From positions 5,390 through 69,389 of the forward strand of contig CAYXVY010000337.1 of NCBI GenBank assembly GCA_964468745.1: a stretch of DNA of 64,000 nt, written 5' to 3'. The notes beneath the pieces are model-generated. The model saw only the letters and a program-made list of their open reading frames with translations. It made no database searches and was not told the origin of the DNA. Made by a program: the position numbers and the translations under genes. This stretch comes from an uncultured Planctomycetales bacterium (GTDB lineage Bacteria > Planctomycetota > MHYJ01 > JACPRB01). Positions 15,726-54,127 of the stretch are shown here, piece after piece. Position 1 is the first letter of the stretch. Every line of letters starts with the position of its first letter.

Positions 15726-15816
15726 GGGGACGTTCTAGCACAAACTCGGATATGGAGATGCTGCCATAGGAAATGGGTTGACGAATCCGCGCGGAATTCT
15801 ACTATTCCGTTCAGGG

Positions 15817-16992
15817 ATGGTGGATGCGAAGTCCCTGGTCAACCAGGGTAACGATCACGCCAAGCGTGGAGACGCGGCGGCGGCCATTGCGGCCTACAGC
15901 GAGGCGATCGGTATCGACGGCTCGCTCGCGAGCGCCTGGTACAACCGCGGCGTGACCCGAGCGGCCCGCGGCGAGCACGACGGCGCGATCGGGGACCTCT
16001 CGCAGGCGATCCTGCTCGCGCCGCAGCGTTCCGACGCGTTGCACCATCGCGGAAACTCTCGCACCGCCGCGGGCGACCTTCACGGTGCCATCGAAGACTT
16101 CTCCGAGGTCGTGCGGCTCGATCCGAAGGCGGCCCAGGCGTGGTCGAATCGCGCGCTCGCGAAGATCCGCCTCGGCATCGTAGATGGCGCCATCGAGGAT
16201 CTCAGCGAGGCGATCCGCCTGCGCCCTGACGCGACGTCGCTGACGAACCGCGGGCAGCTGTTCAATCAGAAGGCCGATTTCAAGGCGGCGTATGCCGACT
16301 TCGACGCGGCGGTGAAACTGGACGCGAAGAATTTCAAGGCGTGGTATTACCGCGGCTTCATCCGCATGAAGGCGCATGATCCGGGGGCCCTGGAGGACTT
16401 TGCGCGCGCGATCGCCGGCAATCCGAAGTACTTCGAGGCGTACTGGCATCGCGCACTCACGCGCATGCAGCACGAGGAGTTCGAAGGCGCCGTCGAAGAC
16501 TTTACGCAGGCGCTCTCGCTGCGCCCGAACGAGTACAAGGTGTTCTACCACAGGGCGATTGCGCGCGAGGGACAGGGCGACTTCGACGGTGTCGTTCAGG
16601 ACTACACGTCGTACCTGTATATGGAGCCCGGCAAGCTCGAGGCGCTGCAAGGGCGCGGCCGCGCCCGGCTCGCGAAAGGGGATGTCGACGCCGCGATCGC
16701 GGATTTCACCGAAGCGGTGCGCCGGGCGCCGTACATGCCCGAGACGTACGCCGAACGCGCCGACGCGCGCCTCAAGAAGGGGGACCTCAACGGGGCGCGC
16801 CAGGACTACGACGAGGCGCTGAAGATCAATCCGAACAACGGCGCGTGGCGCGCCGCGCGCGCGAGCGTGCAGTCGGCGAGCGGGAACCGCGCCGCGGTCG
16901 TGGAGGATCTCGACCGCATGTTCGGCTTCTCGATCAAGGATAAGGTCGAACAGGCGATCAAGGAACTCAGGGCGAAGGGGCAAACGCAGTAG
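15817..16992 (+). CDS. TPR-repeat protein (about 10-11 repeats)
   Basis: 34-aa repeats A(W/Y)xNRG....G....AI.D(F/Y)..AI.L.P; start at ATG 15817 or 15778. Confidence 0.9.
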   Translation: MVDAKSLVNQGNDHAKRGDAAAAIAAYSEAIGIDGSLASAWYNRGVTRAARGEHDGAIGDLSQAILLAPQRSDALHHRGNSRTAAGDLHGAIEDFSEVVRLDPKAAQAWSNRALAKIRLGIVDGAIEDLSEAIRLRPDATSLTNRGQLFNQKADFKAAYADFDAAVKLDAKNFKAWYYRGFIRMKAHDPGALEDFARAIAGNPKYFEAYWHRALTRMQHEEFEGAVEDFTQALSLRPNEYKVFYHRAIAREGQGDFDGVVQDYTSYLYMEPGKLEALQGRGRARLAKGDVDAAIADFTEAVRRAPYMPETYAERADARLKKGDLNGARQDYDEALKINPNNGAWRAARASVQSASGNRAAVVEDLDRMFGFSIKDKVEQAIKELRAKGQTQ

Positions 16993-34650: not shown

Positions 34651-34963
34651 GGCCGCGCCTCCTTTTGCACACGTCGTCACCGCTCTTCGCGCGTCTCATC
34701 GCCGCGCACACAACGGGTTCCCTGCAAGCGGCATGCCACGAGGCCATGCGCAAGGCGCTGCGCGGCAACAGCCAAGCGCGTGTCGCGATAGGGCACAGAT
34801 GAAAGTGTTTCCGGGGGAAACGCGGCGTTTCCGGGAGAAACGCGGTCGCGCTCGAGCCCTCGCGCGTCGAAAGCACGCGTCGGGATGAGCCGGAGTGCTC
34901 GCCGGCGACCGTAAAGGACGAAAAGCGCGCCAAATGTATTTTTTCAGCGCGTCAAGTTTCTCG

Positions 34964-36342: not shown

Positions 36343-38178
36343 GTGCACGCGCTTACCGCCGCAATGCTGGCTCTCGTTCTCGCGCAGGACGATCTCTCCC
36401 GCAAGTGCGGGAGCGAAATCGAGTGGATGACGGACGAGGGCGATGCGGCGGCCGCCGCGCAGAAGAAGGGCTGTCCGATCCTCTGGTACGTTTTCACCGT
36501 CGCGAACTCGCCGATGGACCGCAAGGACGTGGTCGACGACTACATGAAGTGCGGACCGTGGATGATGCGCGACGTGGTCGATCTCGTGAAGCGGCGCTTC
36601 GTCGCGTTGCGCAAGGGGGGCAGCGGCGACCTCGCGAAGAAGTGCGGGGTGGCGCGACTCGAATTCGTCGAGCCCGGGATCGTGTTCCTGACGCCCGACC
36701 TGAAGCCGATTCATCGCATTGATCGCCTCTCGACGTTCCAGGAGGATTGGCTCGTCGATCTGCTTCGTGCGGTCCTCAAGAAGGCGGGCAGGGCCGAACC
36801 GTCCTTCGAGCAGCAGCTCAAGGAGGCAAAGTCTCCGATCGATCGCGCGCGTCTCCATCGTCGCATGCGCAAGCCGGACGACGCGTGGAAGGAGCTGGAT
36901 GGAGCGGGCGATTCCGCGGAGGCGAACATCGAGCGCGGCTGGCTCGCGCTGCGTCAGGGCGACGCGGGGAAGGCGGTCGAACACTTGAAGCTCGTCGACC
37001 GTGCCGAGGCCCAGTATCTGCAAGGCGCGGCGCTCTTCATGCTCAACAAGGATGATGAGGGCATGGATCTCTGGCGAAAGTGCGCGACGGATGCGATGAG
37101 CCCGTGGGCGTGGAAGGCAGCGGCGGAGCTGTCGGGAAGGGGTCCGTTCTATCGCTGCTTCGAAGAGATGGCGTGGGTGCCTGATGCGACGGAACTCGCC
37201 ACGTCCAGCACGCGCCCCCGCACGGCGAAGGAGATCGAGCTTGTCACGAAGCGCAGCGTTGCGTTGCTGCTCCGCACCCAGCGCGCGAATGGATCGTGGA
37301 ACGACTCGAATTATGAGTTCGGCGGCAAGGACAGCCTGCCGAACGTGTACATGGCCGGTACCGCGCTCGCAGTCGCGGCGCTTCATGCGTGGCGCGACAT
37401 CGACGCGACTGGCATCGACGGCGCCATCGATCGCGCATGGGGATTCATGGTCGATGAGAAGAACATGGCGACGAATGACGAGGACGAGGTGATCTGGGGC
37501 TACGCGTATCGCCTCACGGCGTTCGCACGGCTCGCGGCCGACGCGAAGCGCAAGGATGACTGCGTCAAGAAGATGAACGAAATCGTCGGGCTGATCGAGA
37601 AACTGCAGAAGCGCACGGGCATCTGGCGGCACGAGTACGAGGCGCCATTCACGACGGCCACCGTGCTACACAGTCTCTGGGAGGCGAAGCAGGCGGGCGC
37701 GACCGTGGCGGACGCGATGATGAAAAAGGGCGCCGACGCGCTCGCGAGCTGCCGCAACAAGAAAGGCGTGATCAGTTACGAGTATCCGGCGCAGGGTCAC
37801 GTCGTCGAGCAGTCGGCGGGGCGGATGCCCATCTGCGAACTCGCGCTGCGCCTGTGCGGACAGTCCGACGAAGTGCGACTGCGAATGGCCGTGGAAAAGT
37901 CGTTCGAGCTGCACGGCCTCCTCGAACGCGTGCGGAAATACGACGACCACGCGGACCAGTACCAGAACGGGGGCTTCTTCTTCTGGTACGACATGGTCGG
38001 GCGCACCGAGGCCATCCGACGTCTGAAAGGGGAGCGTCCGAAGCTCCTGGAGAAGCAGAGGGATCTCGCACTCTCGATCACGGAGATTGACGGCTGCTTT
38101 GTAGATTCGCACGAGCTCGGCAAGACGTACGGCACGGCGATGGGGCTGCTGACGCTCAAGCTGTGCGGCAAAGACTAA
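36343..38178 (+). CDS. Secreted protein: thioredoxin-like N-domain + TPR + prenyltransferase/squalene-cyclase-like barrel
   Basis: Signal peptide; DVVDLVKRRFVALR..PGIVFLTPD (Trx-like without CxxC); QRANGSW QW-type repeats. Confidence 0.7.
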   Translation: MHALTAAMLALVLAQDDLSRKCGSEIEWMTDEGDAAAAAQKKGCPILWYVFTVANSPMDRKDVVDDYMKCGPWMMRDVVDLVKRRFVALRKGGSGDLAKKCGVARLEFVEPGIVFLTPDLKPIHRIDRLSTFQEDWLVDLLRAVLKKAGRAEPSFEQQLKEAKSPIDRARLHRRMRKPDDAWKELDGAGDSAEANIERGWLALRQGDAGKAVEHLKLVDRAEAQYLQGAALFMLNKDDEGMDLWRKCATDAMSPWAWKAAAELSGRGPFYRCFEEMAWVPDATELATSSTRPRTAKEIELVTKRSVALLLRTQRANGSWNDSNYEFGGKDSLPNVYMAGTALAVAALHAWRDIDATGIDGAIDRAWGFMVDEKNMATNDEDEVIWGYAYRLTAFARLAADAKRKDDCVKKMNEIVGLIEKLQKRTGIWRHEYEAPFTTATVLHSLWEAKQAGATVADAMMKKGADALASCRNKKGVISYEYPAQGHVVEQSAGRMPICELALRLCGQSDEVRLRMAVEKSFELHGLLERVRKYDDHADQYQNGGFFFWYDMVGRTEAIRRLKGERPKLLEKQRDLALSITEIDGCFVDSHELGKTYGTAMGLLTLKLCGKD

Positions 38179-38223
38179 TGAACTGCCGACCCGCGCCTTT
38201 ATAGAGGGACGAGGACTGAGCTT

Positions 38224-39078
38224 ATGAAGACCGTGCTTGTTGCGTTCTCGCTGATTGCCGCGTTTGCCGTTCCCGCGTACGGGCAGTGATGCCCGCCGAG
38301 TGACGGCGGGATCCCCGGCGGGGGTCCCGGTCTGATCGCGACGGGGAATTCGAATGAGTGGCTTCCCGGCGCGGGCGACAAGCAGACCAACAAGGTCGTC
38401 AACACAATCAAGATGCGGTACTACACCGCCGGCGACGTGGTCCCCACTACGCTGAAGGAGATGCTCAGGAAACTCCGTGGGGTCGAGAGCATCAAGAACG
38501 CGTCGGCCGAGCGGGCGATCCTGCTCGGATGGTCCAGGGAGTGCTCCGGACTCGCCGACCTCGAGAAGGCCGCCGGCGTGCAGGCCGTCATCATCAACCA
38601 CGCGCACGTCGACGTGCGGTTCAAGGCGACCAAGGACACCAACCTCAGGAAGCTCCAGGAGGAGATGGCAAGAGTCCCCGGCGTATTCGGCATCAAGTGG
38701 TGGGAAGGGGGGGCGTACCTCCACTCGAATCTCGACGGCCTGTCTGTGGACGCGATCTACGCGATCGCGAAGGAATGTAATTTCACGGCTACGGTTCACA
38801 ATCTCCACGAGACGACGGTCACGATCCCGCTCGACGACGATAAGACGCAGATGATCGCGGAGAACGCCCCGTTCGTCGCGGAACAGCTGCTCGAAGTGTG
38901 GTCTCGCGAAAAGGCGTGGAAGTTCAAGAACGTTCTCGAACGCCGCAAGACGGTGCTCGTGGCTCGTATCCGCGAGGGGAAAATCTCGATCCTCTCGCGA
39001 GAGCTGCTGACGACGAGCGACGTCGAGAAGGATGCCAAGGCCGCCGGCGTGACGATCGGAGAAGTCACGAAGCCCTGA
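38224..39078 (+). CDS. Candidate secreted selenoprotein (in-frame UGA at codon 22, U-C) with HMA/ferredoxin-like repeats
   Basis: GAGGA RBS, signal MKTVLVAFSLIAAFAVPAYG-Q, TGA 38287-38289, then TGC; the frame continues uninterrupted into ORF 38413..39078; downstream hairpins. Confidence 0.7.
38308..38328 (+). promoter_or_regulatory. SECIS-like hairpin
   Basis: GGGAUCCCC-GGC-GGGGGUCCC, loop G at +28 from the UGA; a competing hairpin CCCGCCG-AGUGA-CGGCGGG lies at 38292-38310. Confidence 0.45.
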
Positions 39079-52713: not shown

Positions 52714-53090
52714 TGCTGATCGCTCTACTCGTCGCTGCAGCGTTCGGCGCGGCGCTGTCGATCTACACGTTGCGCGTGATGGCCTGCGGGGGCGACGCGT
52801 GCGATTTCGTGATGTCGAGTCGATTCGCGCGCGTCTTCGGATTCCCGAACGCGGCGCTCGCGCTGGCATACAACGTCGCGCTGATGGCGTTCGCGTCGCT
52901 GCGCCTGGCGCACATCGCTGTGCCGCTCTGGCCTGCGCTTGCGGCGTGTGCGGCAAGCCTCGTCATGACGGCCTATCTCGCGTTCGCGCTGCTCGTTCGC
53001 GTGAAGCGGACCTGACGGCTCTGAATCGCGGGCTACGCGATCAACGCGGCGGTCGCCGCGATCCTCGGCGCGCTCTGGTTCTACAGCTGA
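52713..53090 (+). CDS. Vitamin K epoxide reductase (VKOR)-family protein with U-x-x-U active site (candidate diseleno-protein)
   Basis: Loop CGGDAC.FVMSS..ARVFGFPNA.L...Y; TM; then KRT-TGA(53013)-R-L-TGA(53022)-IAGYAIN and a final TM to the TGA at 53088. Confidence 0.85.
53025..53060 (+). promoter_or_regulatory. Two tandem SECIS-like hairpins
   Basis: AUCGCG-GGCUA-CGCGAU (53025-53041) and CGCGGC-GGUC-GCCGCG (53045-53060). Confidence 0.6.
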
Positions 53091-54127
53091 AGCAGGGGCA
53101 GCAGCCTGTTGGGCGACTGCAGCATCAGGAGCGAGAGCGACGTCGCATACGCACGGCAGCAGAGGCAGTACTCGATCGTCCACGAGCCGTCGGCGTTCTG
53201 GATCTTGACGAGCTGGCCGCGCAGCTTCGGAAACCACTCCTTCCACGCCGGGCCGTTCTCGTGGAGCAGCGCCATGACGGCGTAGAATCCGCCGCAGTAG
53301 TCCCATTCCGAGATCTTGCCGCCGTAGTCGTCGCCGAGCTTCTTGCCCACGAGGACCTTCACGCCCGCCGTGACTTCCTTCATGTCGCCGCGGCCCATGC
53401 CGTACAGGATGCGCAGGCCCGCGGAGGTCGGATAGAACATCTGGCCGCCCCCGCCGCGCACCGACGGGTGCTGATCGAATCCGCCGGAGGGGTGCGCGCA
53501 GCTTTTTACGAACTTCTCGACCTTCGAGATGCTCGCGTTCTCAACGACGGCCCCCGAGTTGTGCGCCGCCCGAAGCGCCAGCCAGACATTGCACGTGATC
53601 GCCAGGTCGGAATTTCCCCCCGACCCCTGTGCGTCCCACCCGCCGTCCTTGTTCTGCTTCCTATAGAGGTAGGCGAGCGCCTTGCGAAGGGCGGCCGCGA
53701 GCGGCTCGGAATCCTCCTGCGGGTCCTGCATTCCGTAGAACTCCGCGAGCGCGAGGGTGGCGCAGGAGTGATCGTAGAAGATGCCCATTCCGGTCGAGTC
53801 GTGCTGCGTGATCTCGCCGGAATTCTTCTGGATCGCGATCATCTTCGCGATGGCGCGCGTGATGGCTTCCTTGTGCGGCCCGCGCGACGGCGTACTCCCC
53901 TCGGCGGCGAGCGCAAGCGCGGACAGGGCCGTGATGGCCGTTGAAGGCGCGCCCGAGCGTTCGCATCCCCACAGGCCGTCGGGATTCTGGTTCTTGAGAA
54001 GCCAGTCGATCCCCTTCTTGATGGACGCCTCGGCGTCGAGCGGCTTTTCGGGGACGGATTTGTCGTCCTGCGGCCACACCGATGCGGCACCCGTCACCAT
54101 CAGCAGGAGCGCCAGTCGTAGGGCCAT
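53081..54127 (-). CDS. Secreted prenyltransferase/squalene-oxidase-repeat protein
   Basis: KGIDWLLKNQNPDG.W, QNKDGGW, QNADGSW QW repeats; signal peptide. Confidence 0.85.
   Translation of the reverse strand: MALRLALLLMVTGAASVWPQDDKSVPEKPLDAEASIKKGIDWLLKNQNPDGLWGCERSGAPSTAITALSALALAAEGSTPSRGPHKEAITRAIAKMIAIQKNSGEITQHDSTGMGIFYDHSCATLALAEFYGMQDPQEDSEPLAAALRKALAYLYRKQNKDGGWDAQGSGGNSDLAITCNVWLALRAAHNSGAVVENASISKVEKFVKSCAHPSGGFDQHPSVRGGGGQMFYPTSAGLRILYGMGRGDMKEVTAGVKVLVGKKLGDDYGGKISEWDYCGGFYAVMALLHENGPAWKEWFPKLRGQLVKIQNADGSWTIEYCLCCRAYATSLSLLMLQSPNRLLPLLQL

Follow-up and report, generated by a model that had tools for sequence, protein, structure and literature searches.

The DNA studied here, hereafter the window, is a stretch of 64,000 nucleotides (nt) from an uncultured Planctomycetales bacterium (contig CAYXVY010000337.1 of assembly GCA_964468745.1). 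Within it, the public gene call for the protein in question (P0001) begins at ATG 38413. Reading the same frame upstream leads through a TGA codon at 38287 into a short leader that starts at ATG 38224, and the original prediction, made from the letters of the sequence, had taken this arrangement for a signal peptide and a UGA-Cys pair fused in frame to a repeat-domain protein, and hence for a candidate selenoprotein. We find, from comparison with related genes, that TGA 38287 is very probably a real selenocysteine (Sec) codon, and we regard it as highly likely that it is a genuine Sec codon in an exported protein whose body resembles the HMA domain. The features of the locus are as follows, in window positions.

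38211-38215 (+): Shine-Dalgarno-like GAGGA, read in the sequence, 8 nt before ATG 38224
38224-39078 (+): proposed complete selenoprotein gene of 284 codons (the Sec codon counted) and a TGA stop; a single frame with TGA 38287 as its sole interruption, and relatives with the same architecture
38224-38283 (+): signal-peptide-like leader M1-G20, MKTVLVAFSLIAAFAVPAYG, recognized by its sequence features
38284-38286 (+): Gln21, predicted residue 1 of the mature protein, conserved in the family
38287-38289 (+): in-frame UGA, proposed Sec codon, residue 22 or mature position 2; the TGA is conserved in relatives
38290-38292 (+): Cys23 (TGC), vicinal to the proposed Sec; head Q-U-C in the window protein and most relatives
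38292-38310 (+): hairpin A, CCCGCCG / CGGCGGG (38292-38298 / 38304-38310) with loop AGUGA, probably incidental
38293-38400 (+): Gly/Pro-rich tether, predicted to be disordered (predicted local distance difference test, pLDDT, <50 for residues 1-29 after the UGA) and carrying a Trp (NEWLPG) towards the end
38307-38329 (+): hairpin B, resembling a selenocysteine insertion sequence (SECIS), with a 10-base-pair (bp) stem (38307-38316 / 38320-38329) and loop GGC (38317-38319), from folding and with comparative support
38401-38592 (+): HMA-like domain 1 of ferredoxin fold (beta-alpha-beta-beta-alpha-beta), from AlphaFold2 and a MerP profile match (E 1e-6)
38599-38796 (+): HMA-like domain 2, opening with a conserved N-H-A-H, from AlphaFold2 and matches to the tandem HMA domains of CopA and ATP7B
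38806-39066 (+): HMA-like domain 3, with a window-specific helical insertion of ~23 residues, from AlphaFold2 and the alignment
39076-39078 (+): the gene's own TGA stop, read in the sequence, 263 codons past the proposed Sec UGA

The ribosome-binding site (RBS), the leader, the run Q-TGA-TGC-CCG-CCG and the open frame into the open reading frame (ORF) 38413-39078 were all located where they had been claimed. After the TGA the frame reads C-P-P-S-D-G-G... and stays open across the annotated start at ATG 38413 to the stop at 39076-39078. Sequence inspection also bore out the claim that ATG 38413 has no RBS, as no Shine-Dalgarno-like sequence was found upstream of it. In the gene frame, the GC content at third codon positions (GC3) rises from 0.76 (leader) through 0.83 (the 123 nt from the TGA to ATG 38413) to 0.86 (called ORF), compared with 0.53 for the 45 nt of intergenic sequence behind the upstream gene, the region as a whole having 64% GC. 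At 0.83, the stretch between the TGA and ATG 38413 therefore looks coding. The TGA itself is identical in a second Logan assembly (L001) of the same sample, SRR9952630.

TGA is the stop of 15 of the 42 likely genes in the window, including the selenoprotein gene itself. An alternative genetic code is ruled out by this frequency; the code is standard, and the decoding of TGA 38287 must therefore be a local recoding event. Indeed, since the gene ends in a TGA that is read as a stop 263 codons later, recoding would depend on local context. When all 327 'open' in-frame TGAs in the window were scanned for coding-like flanks together with a GG-loop hairpin, the codon at 38287 was the sole one to qualify. 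An in-frame TGA at 34800 (+) was dismissed, being antisense to the SSB gene.

To Pfam and NCBIfam the window protein is a stranger, with no family matched in either, and a word-indexed protein search with the full read-through protein as query returned the window's own ORF only. The same kind of search with a family alignment scored 10 proteins, and an exhaustive HMMER protein search yielded 25 relatives of ~200-260 residues at 23-37% identity, one of which bears the automatic name 'copper chaperone CopZ' from the Joint Genome Institute (JGI). In many of these relatives the called start coincides with the residue that aligns to Met 38413 (MRYY...) or falls within a Gly-rich stretch, as expected of gene callers that meet a stop further upstream; a few are called with a signal peptide continuous into the domain, e.g. 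P0016 (...AAPASA-QCPASGASG...). Several Sec-type relatives have no ATG at the domain start, and the callers used TTG, GTG or linker-internal starts instead. We examined the DNA of ten relatives that looked cut at the N-terminus (P0009, P0027, P0011, P0015, P0004, P0019, P0036, P0005, P0003, P0023; 21-35% identity), and all ten carry, upstream and in frame, a Gly/Ser-rich linker, a TGA, and a signal peptide that ends 1-4 residues before the TGA. The concern that homologues might lack the leader and simply start at 38413 is answered by these genes. Indeed, every public gene call that we examined for Sec-type members begins after the TGA.

The heads of these genes are the first residues predicted for the mature protein (U denoting the proposed Sec). 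Seven loci read Q-TGA-C: ...VDAHGQ-TGA-CGGGG (L002), ...VPAAAQ-TGA-CDDNSSGGG (L004, from NCBI assembly GCA_975252035.1), ...VDLYGQ-TGA-CGGGG (L006), ...VQAYGQ-TGA-CGSGG (L008), ...ADAHGQ-TGA-CGSSGG (L009), ...APAYGQ-TGA-CGG (L026) and ...TNLYGQ-TGA-CGSGG (L028). Three variants have the TGA without an adjacent Cys: AQ-GR-TGA-G (L025), AQ-TGA-GP (L029) and RP-TGA-GG (L010). Further members came from a metagenome scan keyed on the motif A[YLV][VLI][LIV]NHAHV; the key is internal to the protein and therefore blind to the N-terminus, so that it cannot favour any head type. The scan gave 12 loci, 11 of them with the N-terminus included. A TGA is present in 8 of these 11, as Q-U-C in L014, L015, L016 and L017 and as Q-C-U in L019, L020, L021 and L022, and the other three have Cys only, as Q-C-P-S-C in L013 and L018 and as Q-C-P-A-S in L023. 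A scan of genome contigs with the pattern AGVPAY[VL][VLI]N produced only two matches, both IspH/LytB false positives.

Altogether, the 33 distinct full-length copies of the family comprise 22 with a TGA, 6 with a Cys-only head and 5 with a head devoid of Cys. In the 22 TGA-bearing genes the codon occupies mature position 2-5 and is always in frame with the domain, so that the TGA is conserved and not a private nonsense mutation of this lineage, the second doubt that had been attached to the candidate. The Sec-type genes are spread over deep branches of the tree, with a median identity of 33% and a minimum of 21%. The window protein forms a long branch, at 23-29% identity to every other member, with Q-U-C retained, and in close pairs such as L014/L015 flanking residues have changed and the TGA is kept. 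Nearly every member has the Gln before the head motif, even where Sec and Cys are both missing. From the aligned sequences, the putative Sec and Cys swap at the same two head positions across members. Of the two heads to be looked for in homologues at this position, U-C or C-C, the former is found in most relatives and Cys occupies each of the two positions elsewhere, but a plain C-C pair was found in none.

Members with different heads often lie side by side. A UGA-tolerant six-frame search of related contigs with the family hidden Markov model (HMM) detected tandem arrays of 2-4 paralogues bearing different heads on many contigs (L013:266-3674; L018:1-2927; L022:125-2245; L019:2431-3818; L020:944-2587). 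The recurring order is no-Cys, Q-C-U, Q-C-P-S-C, then Q-C-P or Q-C-M, as in the L013 array (no-Cys / Q-C-U / Q-C-P-S-C / Q-C-P-A-G); the window gene is a single copy. The presence of Sec-type, CxxC-type and Cys-less paralogues next to each other suggests, as a speculation, that the choice of isoform may follow the selenium supply.

The hallmark of a bacterial SECIS is a small apical loop with a G, situated within the coding sequence directly behind the UGA (PMC1088965). Both hairpins that had been described for this locus are present in the window sequence, and they overlap at 38307-38310, in the 5' arm of hairpin B. The stem of hairpin B begins after a gap of 17 nt from the UGA, and its first loop base lies 30 nt after the U of the UGA. 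The hairpins of the relatives have 6-10 bp, mostly a GGY or GGA triloop, a loop start at +20 to +30 and a spacing of 11-18 nt between UGA and stem. The idea that competing hairpins tune readthrough against termination finds no support in the comparison: only B is conserved, an overlapping upstream hairpin like A being found in one other gene (L026). Hairpin B covaries. Its arms are swapped between genes (GGAGGC-GGU-GCCUCC versus UUCCUCC-GGC-GGAGGAA), and in an alignment of 12 genes anchored on the loop, pairs 1-7 form in 10-12 of the 12, with 2-5 pair types each and with flips from CG to GC and from UA to AU. The covariation was counted directly on this alignment and not with a covariance model; anchoring was used because MAFFT aligned the genes by sequence and shifted purine-first stems by 12 nt.

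Our descriptor of the hairpin asks for 6 or more base pairs in the stem, 3-6 nt in the loop, GG within the first three loop bases, and a loop start at +20 to +30. Such a hairpin is found at 17 of the 18 distinct Sec sites and at the equivalent codon of none of the 12 non-Sec paralogues (Fisher p = 1.5e-7), although p-values of this descriptor are indicative only, because it was chosen post hoc and the genes are related. As background, it is met at 1.9% of all window positions and at 2.7% of the TGA trinucleotides. On the sequences at hand, the contrast with paralogues that have similar Gly-rich linkers is a stronger argument than the p-values. No Rfam family matches the hairpin region, the sub-threshold matches being noise of the microRNA (miRNA) type. 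The stem is built of Gly codons (GGN) paired with Ser/Ala/Pro codons (NCC), and the peptide encoded over it varies freely, from GIPGGGP in the window to GGGASA, GGGGSS and NSSGGGN in relatives. A freely varying peptide over a stem that is kept is the pattern expected if selection acts on the RNA and the peptide serves only as a flexible tether. Because the Gly and Ser/Ala/Pro codons of the tether also build the SECIS stem, the RNA structure would cost the protein nothing.

The protein itself divides into leader, tether and body. By inspection, the leader has Lys2 and a hydrophobic core of 15 residues and ends in A-Y-G, after which come the predicted signal peptidase I site and the Gln; an equivalent leader, with [AV]-x-[AG] followed by Gln, is present in all family members with a complete N-terminus. 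We ruled out a lipoprotein, which would have a lipobox L-[AS]-[GA]-C with Cys first, since the leader ends A-Y-G-Q-U-C and Cys-less members keep A-x-A-Q. Homologues have in-frame linkers of 30-100 residues, rich in Gly and Ser; over all Sec-type relatives the same-frame linker ranges from 13 to ~100 codons. A Trp motif stands between tether and domain 1 in the window (38353-38367, NEWLPG), and motifs of this kind occur among L002, L006 and L014-L017 (GGGWWSGG, AGWWTSGG, SRWWSTG, RRWWGE).

For the body, the AlphaFold2 model built on a 25-sequence alignment (mean pLDDT 86.7; predicted template modelling score, pTM, 0.79) contains three beta-alpha-beta-beta-alpha-beta units, the number and kind of repeats that the original prediction had suggested. 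Its proposal that these are HMA- or ferredoxin-like also stands. Among PDB structures, Foldseek ranks the tandem HMA domains of CopA from B. subtilis and of human ATP7B first (E ~1e-4), with CCS and MerP next; against PDB sequences, the family profile finds MerP (E 1e-6), then the metal-binding domains of Cu-ATPases, and CopZ. Pfam HMA (PF00403) gives weak matches in 11 of the 25 relatives, with a best E of 5.8e-7, and none for the window protein. In NCBIfam, four full-length Sec-type members (with U entered as C) and the Cys-only P0034 match MerP, in each case far below threshold. The alignments to MerP begin just past the CxxC of MerP. Conserved within the body are a Cys (TGC 38542-38544) where helix 2 of domain 1 begins, a Glu in the same helix, and the N-H-A-H that opens domain 2. 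The insertion in domain 3 (IAENAPFVAEQLLEVWSREKAWK, ~38848-38916) is found in none of the 24 aligned homologues, yet is modelled with high confidence.

We propose that SelB, recruited by the hairpin at 38307-38329 through its GGC loop, would deliver Sec-tRNA to UGA 38287. The leader would carry the protein across the cytoplasmic membrane and be cut after A-Y-G (Gly20), and the mature chain would start with Gln-Sec-Cys, whose Gln probably cyclises to pyroglutamate. The working part would be the selenol/thiol pair, held on a disordered Gly/Pro-rich tether of ~35 residues that joins it to a rigid, three-domain HMA-like (MerP/CopZ-like) body. A soft metal ion (Hg, Cu(I) or similar) may be captured or handed over in the periplasm or outside the cell, with Sec-Cys taking the place of the missing CxxC. 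We favour a metal role because the sole detectable kinship is with MerP/CopZ-type binders, the ligand pair of the domain is gone, and a two-chalcogen head is present at the N-terminus. If the Sec is genuine, metal binding is our tentative first choice for its function, a redox role appears doubtful, and what is left belongs to other functions; the C-U-G and C-P-S-C heads fit either a metal or a redox interpretation. The original suggestion that the Sec-Cys pair could bind soft metals or act in redox is thus a plausible one. On the whole, an exported selenoprotein that receives its Sec through SelB and hairpin B, carries a tethered head, and most likely serves a soft metal is the best explanation of the data, and we consider it a likely one.

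Among the closest known systems is MerP (TIGR02052; PDB 1AFI, 1OSD), which binds Hg(II) in the periplasm and is encoded in mer operons. It is the best PDB sequence match of the family profile and the sole recurrent NCBIfam match, and both proteins share the HMA fold and export by a cleaved signal peptide, predicted in the present case. Both would bind a soft metal at a two-chalcogen site. MerP, however, is a single domain of 72 residues with GMTCxxC in the beta1-alpha1 loop, whereas the window protein has three domains without that loop, and its ligand pair, one member of which would be Sec, lies at the mature N-terminus on a disordered tether. Against the TIGR02052 cut-off of 92.6 bits, relatives score 15-24 bits and the window protein has no match.

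Selenoproteins of metal type are already catalogued, among them the MerT/CopZ fusion-like NF045683, the UxxU metal-binding NF041115 and a UxxC cation-transporting ATPase, together with MbdU (CU), CopZ-family 2Fe-2S proteins (GxUC, CU) and a putative mercuric transport protein (PMC13188914, Table 1). In the catalogued HMA/CopZ selenoproteins, as proposed here, Sec replaces a Cys of the metal-binding motif, in some cases as a vicinal C-U or U-C. Their Sec, in contrast, lies in the metal loop of the folded domain or at the C-terminus, and no description of them mentions a signal peptide that leads straight into Q-U-C and a tether. The curated selenoprotein models of NCBIfam 20.0 (e.g. NF045683, NF041115, NF045648) give no match to the window protein at E <= 1, and relatives match NF045683 in the HMA part only, with 20.8 bits against a cut-off of 375. 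A 2026 inventory counts 119 prokaryotic selenoprotein families and subfamilies (PMC13188914); none of them fits, the CopZ-type cd10141 having been compared through the table and not by a model scan. Likewise, nothing like the window protein is described among the new families of deep-Sep or in BSepDB, which was built from known families, and a search of the literature for exported HMA-type or N-terminal Sec families came back empty.

The recoding signal can be compared with the canonical SECIS/SelB system of the fdhF type, in which, as here, a stem-loop with a small G(G/U) apical loop lies inside the coding sequence just after the UGA. The spacing between UGA and stem is 11 nt in E. coli fdhF. 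The window family differs in having mostly a plain GGY or GGA triloop on a perfect GC-rich stem with no evident bulged U, and SelB binding to it is predicted. Mammalian thioredoxin reductase ends in a C-terminal Gly-Cys-Sec-Gly arm, and there too a Cys and a Sec stand side by side on a flexible extension of the chain end; C-U-G is also the head of one clade of the window family. In the window protein, by contrast, the pair lies at the opposite terminus, in the reverse order (U-C), in a protein predicted to be extracytoplasmic and lacking a flavin/dithiol centre that could recharge it. What appears to be new is the protein family itself, the location of Sec where the mature chain of a secreted protein begins, and the encoding of the SECIS in the linker; the recoding mechanism appears standard.

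Several observations weigh against the interpretation as a metal-binding selenoprotein. As regards the metal role, none of the three beta1-alpha1 loops contains a Cys, the GMxCxxC of HMA domains being absent, and the conserved body Cys is missing in some Sec-type members. As regards Sec insertion, no selA, selB, selD or Sec-pathway domain was found by Pfam in the ~35 window ORFs scanned, and the 64-kb window holds no tRNA-Sec, its only tRNA being a tRNA-Ala. The neighbouring genes, for a TPR/prenyltransferase-like protein, for MgtE and for proteins of the methylcrotonyl-CoA carboxylase type, do not hint at a function. The hairpin descriptor was set after the data had been seen and the Sec genes are related, so that the counts are not fully independent; in this region of 64% GC, the folding energy of the window hairpin is unremarkable relative to shuffled sequences (z = -1.25). 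With the plain C-C head missing from the homologues, Sec is matched to Cys through U-C versus C-U versus C-P-S-C, with a one-residue ambiguity in the alignment. Finally, a P-U-G-G subgroup (L010:101-103 and a second copy in L006, at L006:2557-2559), in which the signal peptide ends ...ARAARP and is followed by TGA and GGPST, has neither a neighbouring Cys nor the typical hairpin: the interval +20 to +30 is free of GG-loop hairpins, and what follows the UGA directly is a long stem, GGGGGGCC...GGCCCCCC. This subgroup has either an atypical recoding signal or a decaying gene.

The alternative that fares best accepts Sec decoding as proposed and takes the N-terminal Sec-Cys for a redox centre instead of a metal ligand. 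On its flexible arm, the pair would close into an eight-membered selenenylsulfide ring, like the C-terminus of mammalian thioredoxin reductase, and would exchange electrons with extracytoplasmic substrates (e.g. peroxides, disulfides or chalcogen compounds), the HMA-like body acting as a docking scaffold. The clade that reads C-U-G (AQCUGDG) has the order of the thioredoxin reductase tail, and the absence of the HMA metal loop from the body also speaks for this alternative. The C-P-S-C of Cys-only paralogues is a classic redox-type CxxC, but CxxC and vicinal chalcogen pairs are equally good ligands of soft metals. Although known bacterial selenoproteins are mostly thiol-type oxidoreductases (PMC13188914), no thioredoxin-fold, flavoprotein, DsbD-like or cytochrome partner adjoins the gene, either in the window or at related loci, and the only homology detectable in the body is to metal-binding HMA proteins. 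We therefore consider a redox centre rather unlikely.

Readthrough of the UGA without Sec, by a near-cognate Trp or Cys tRNA or by a suppressor tRNA and stimulated by the downstream hairpin, is a much weaker candidate. Stable downstream structures can stimulate stop-codon readthrough, and Sec machinery was seen nowhere among the ~35 window ORFs scanned. The recoded position, however, alternates specifically with Cys and adjoins a Cys, and low-efficiency readthrough offers no explanation for a TGA that is conserved across genes of 21-35% identity. The size of the hairpin, its distance from the UGA and its small G-containing loop are, moreover, those of a bacterial SECIS (PMC1088965). We judge this alternative very improbable.

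Slightly less probable still is that TGA 38287 is an ordinary stop, ending a 21-codon leader ORF that is followed by a separate cytoplasmic protein from ATG 38413. This is how the public gene call (P0001) has it, TGA is a normal stop in this genome, and no Sec machinery was found among the ~35 window ORFs scanned. Yet such a separate gene would have to start at an ATG without an RBS, behind 123 nt of coding-type GC3, and several relatives have no ATG at the domain start at all. The leader, the TGA and the same-frame linker recur in every Sec-type relative, and in the Cys-only paralogues the signal peptide is fused continuously to the same domain. A recent pseudogene, its TGA having arisen from a Cys or Trp codon in this lineage alone, would take one base substitution (TGC, TGT or TGG to TGA) and could be reconciled with the long branch of the window protein, but can be practically dismissed, as 22 of the 33 distinct family genes, drawn from many samples, have the TGA there too, the remaining frame is intact with strong GC3, and the hairpin is specific to TGA-bearing genes.

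The surroundings of the gene are those of an ordinary chromosome, with genes for DnaB, L9, Pth, L25, Prs, GlmU, SSB, MgtE, CysRS and methylcrotonyl-CoA carboxylase-type proteins. The immediate upstream neighbour (36343-38178, 45 nt away) has weak prenyltransferase/squalene-cyclase-repeat signatures, as has a second protein at 53081-54127(-), one of the two also showing a weak TPR signature; a further gene, rich in TPRs and with a prenyltransferase-alpha repeat, occupies 15778-16992. At other loci of the family, genes for ubiquitin-like conjugation (ThiF E1, YukD-type Ubl, UQ_con E2, JAB peptidase) are found directly upstream of the family gene on three unrelated contigs (L004:2727-5784; L006:202-774; L028:395-2394). 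They do not adjoin the window gene, and their proximity could reflect lineage synteny or a functional link. Beside the AQGR-U-G member, at L025:2077-3405, are CutA1 (divalent-cation tolerance) and two adjacent fragments of Aminotran_5, the class of cysteine desulfurases and selenocysteine lyases; the fragments suggest a split or interrupted gene.

Taken as a family, the window protein and its relatives would seem, somewhat more probably than otherwise, to constitute an undescribed and fairly widespread group of exported selenoproteins, with pyroGlu-Sec-Cys or pyroGlu-Cys-Sec on a low-complexity tether that also forms the SECIS, with arrays suggesting selenium-dependent choice of isoform, and with a role as soft-metal or redox carriers. 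The whole family has been missed by gene callers: the calls start after the TGA and remove the signal peptide and the Sec-Cys head, and the proteins therefore look cytoplasmic and featureless. The Q-U-C head together with the GGY-triloop hairpin provides a simple search key for re-annotation. If our interpretation is true, it adds a selenoprotein family with an unusual layout, in which a secreted protein bears Sec at the very start of its mature chain, and a clean natural example of how bacteria may avoid the conflict between SECIS and protein sequence by placing Sec before a disordered linker. It would also point to extracytoplasmic selenium chemistry, be it metal capture or redox, in environmental bacteria, a chemistry that the occurrence of Sec and Cys isoforms side by side makes directly testable.

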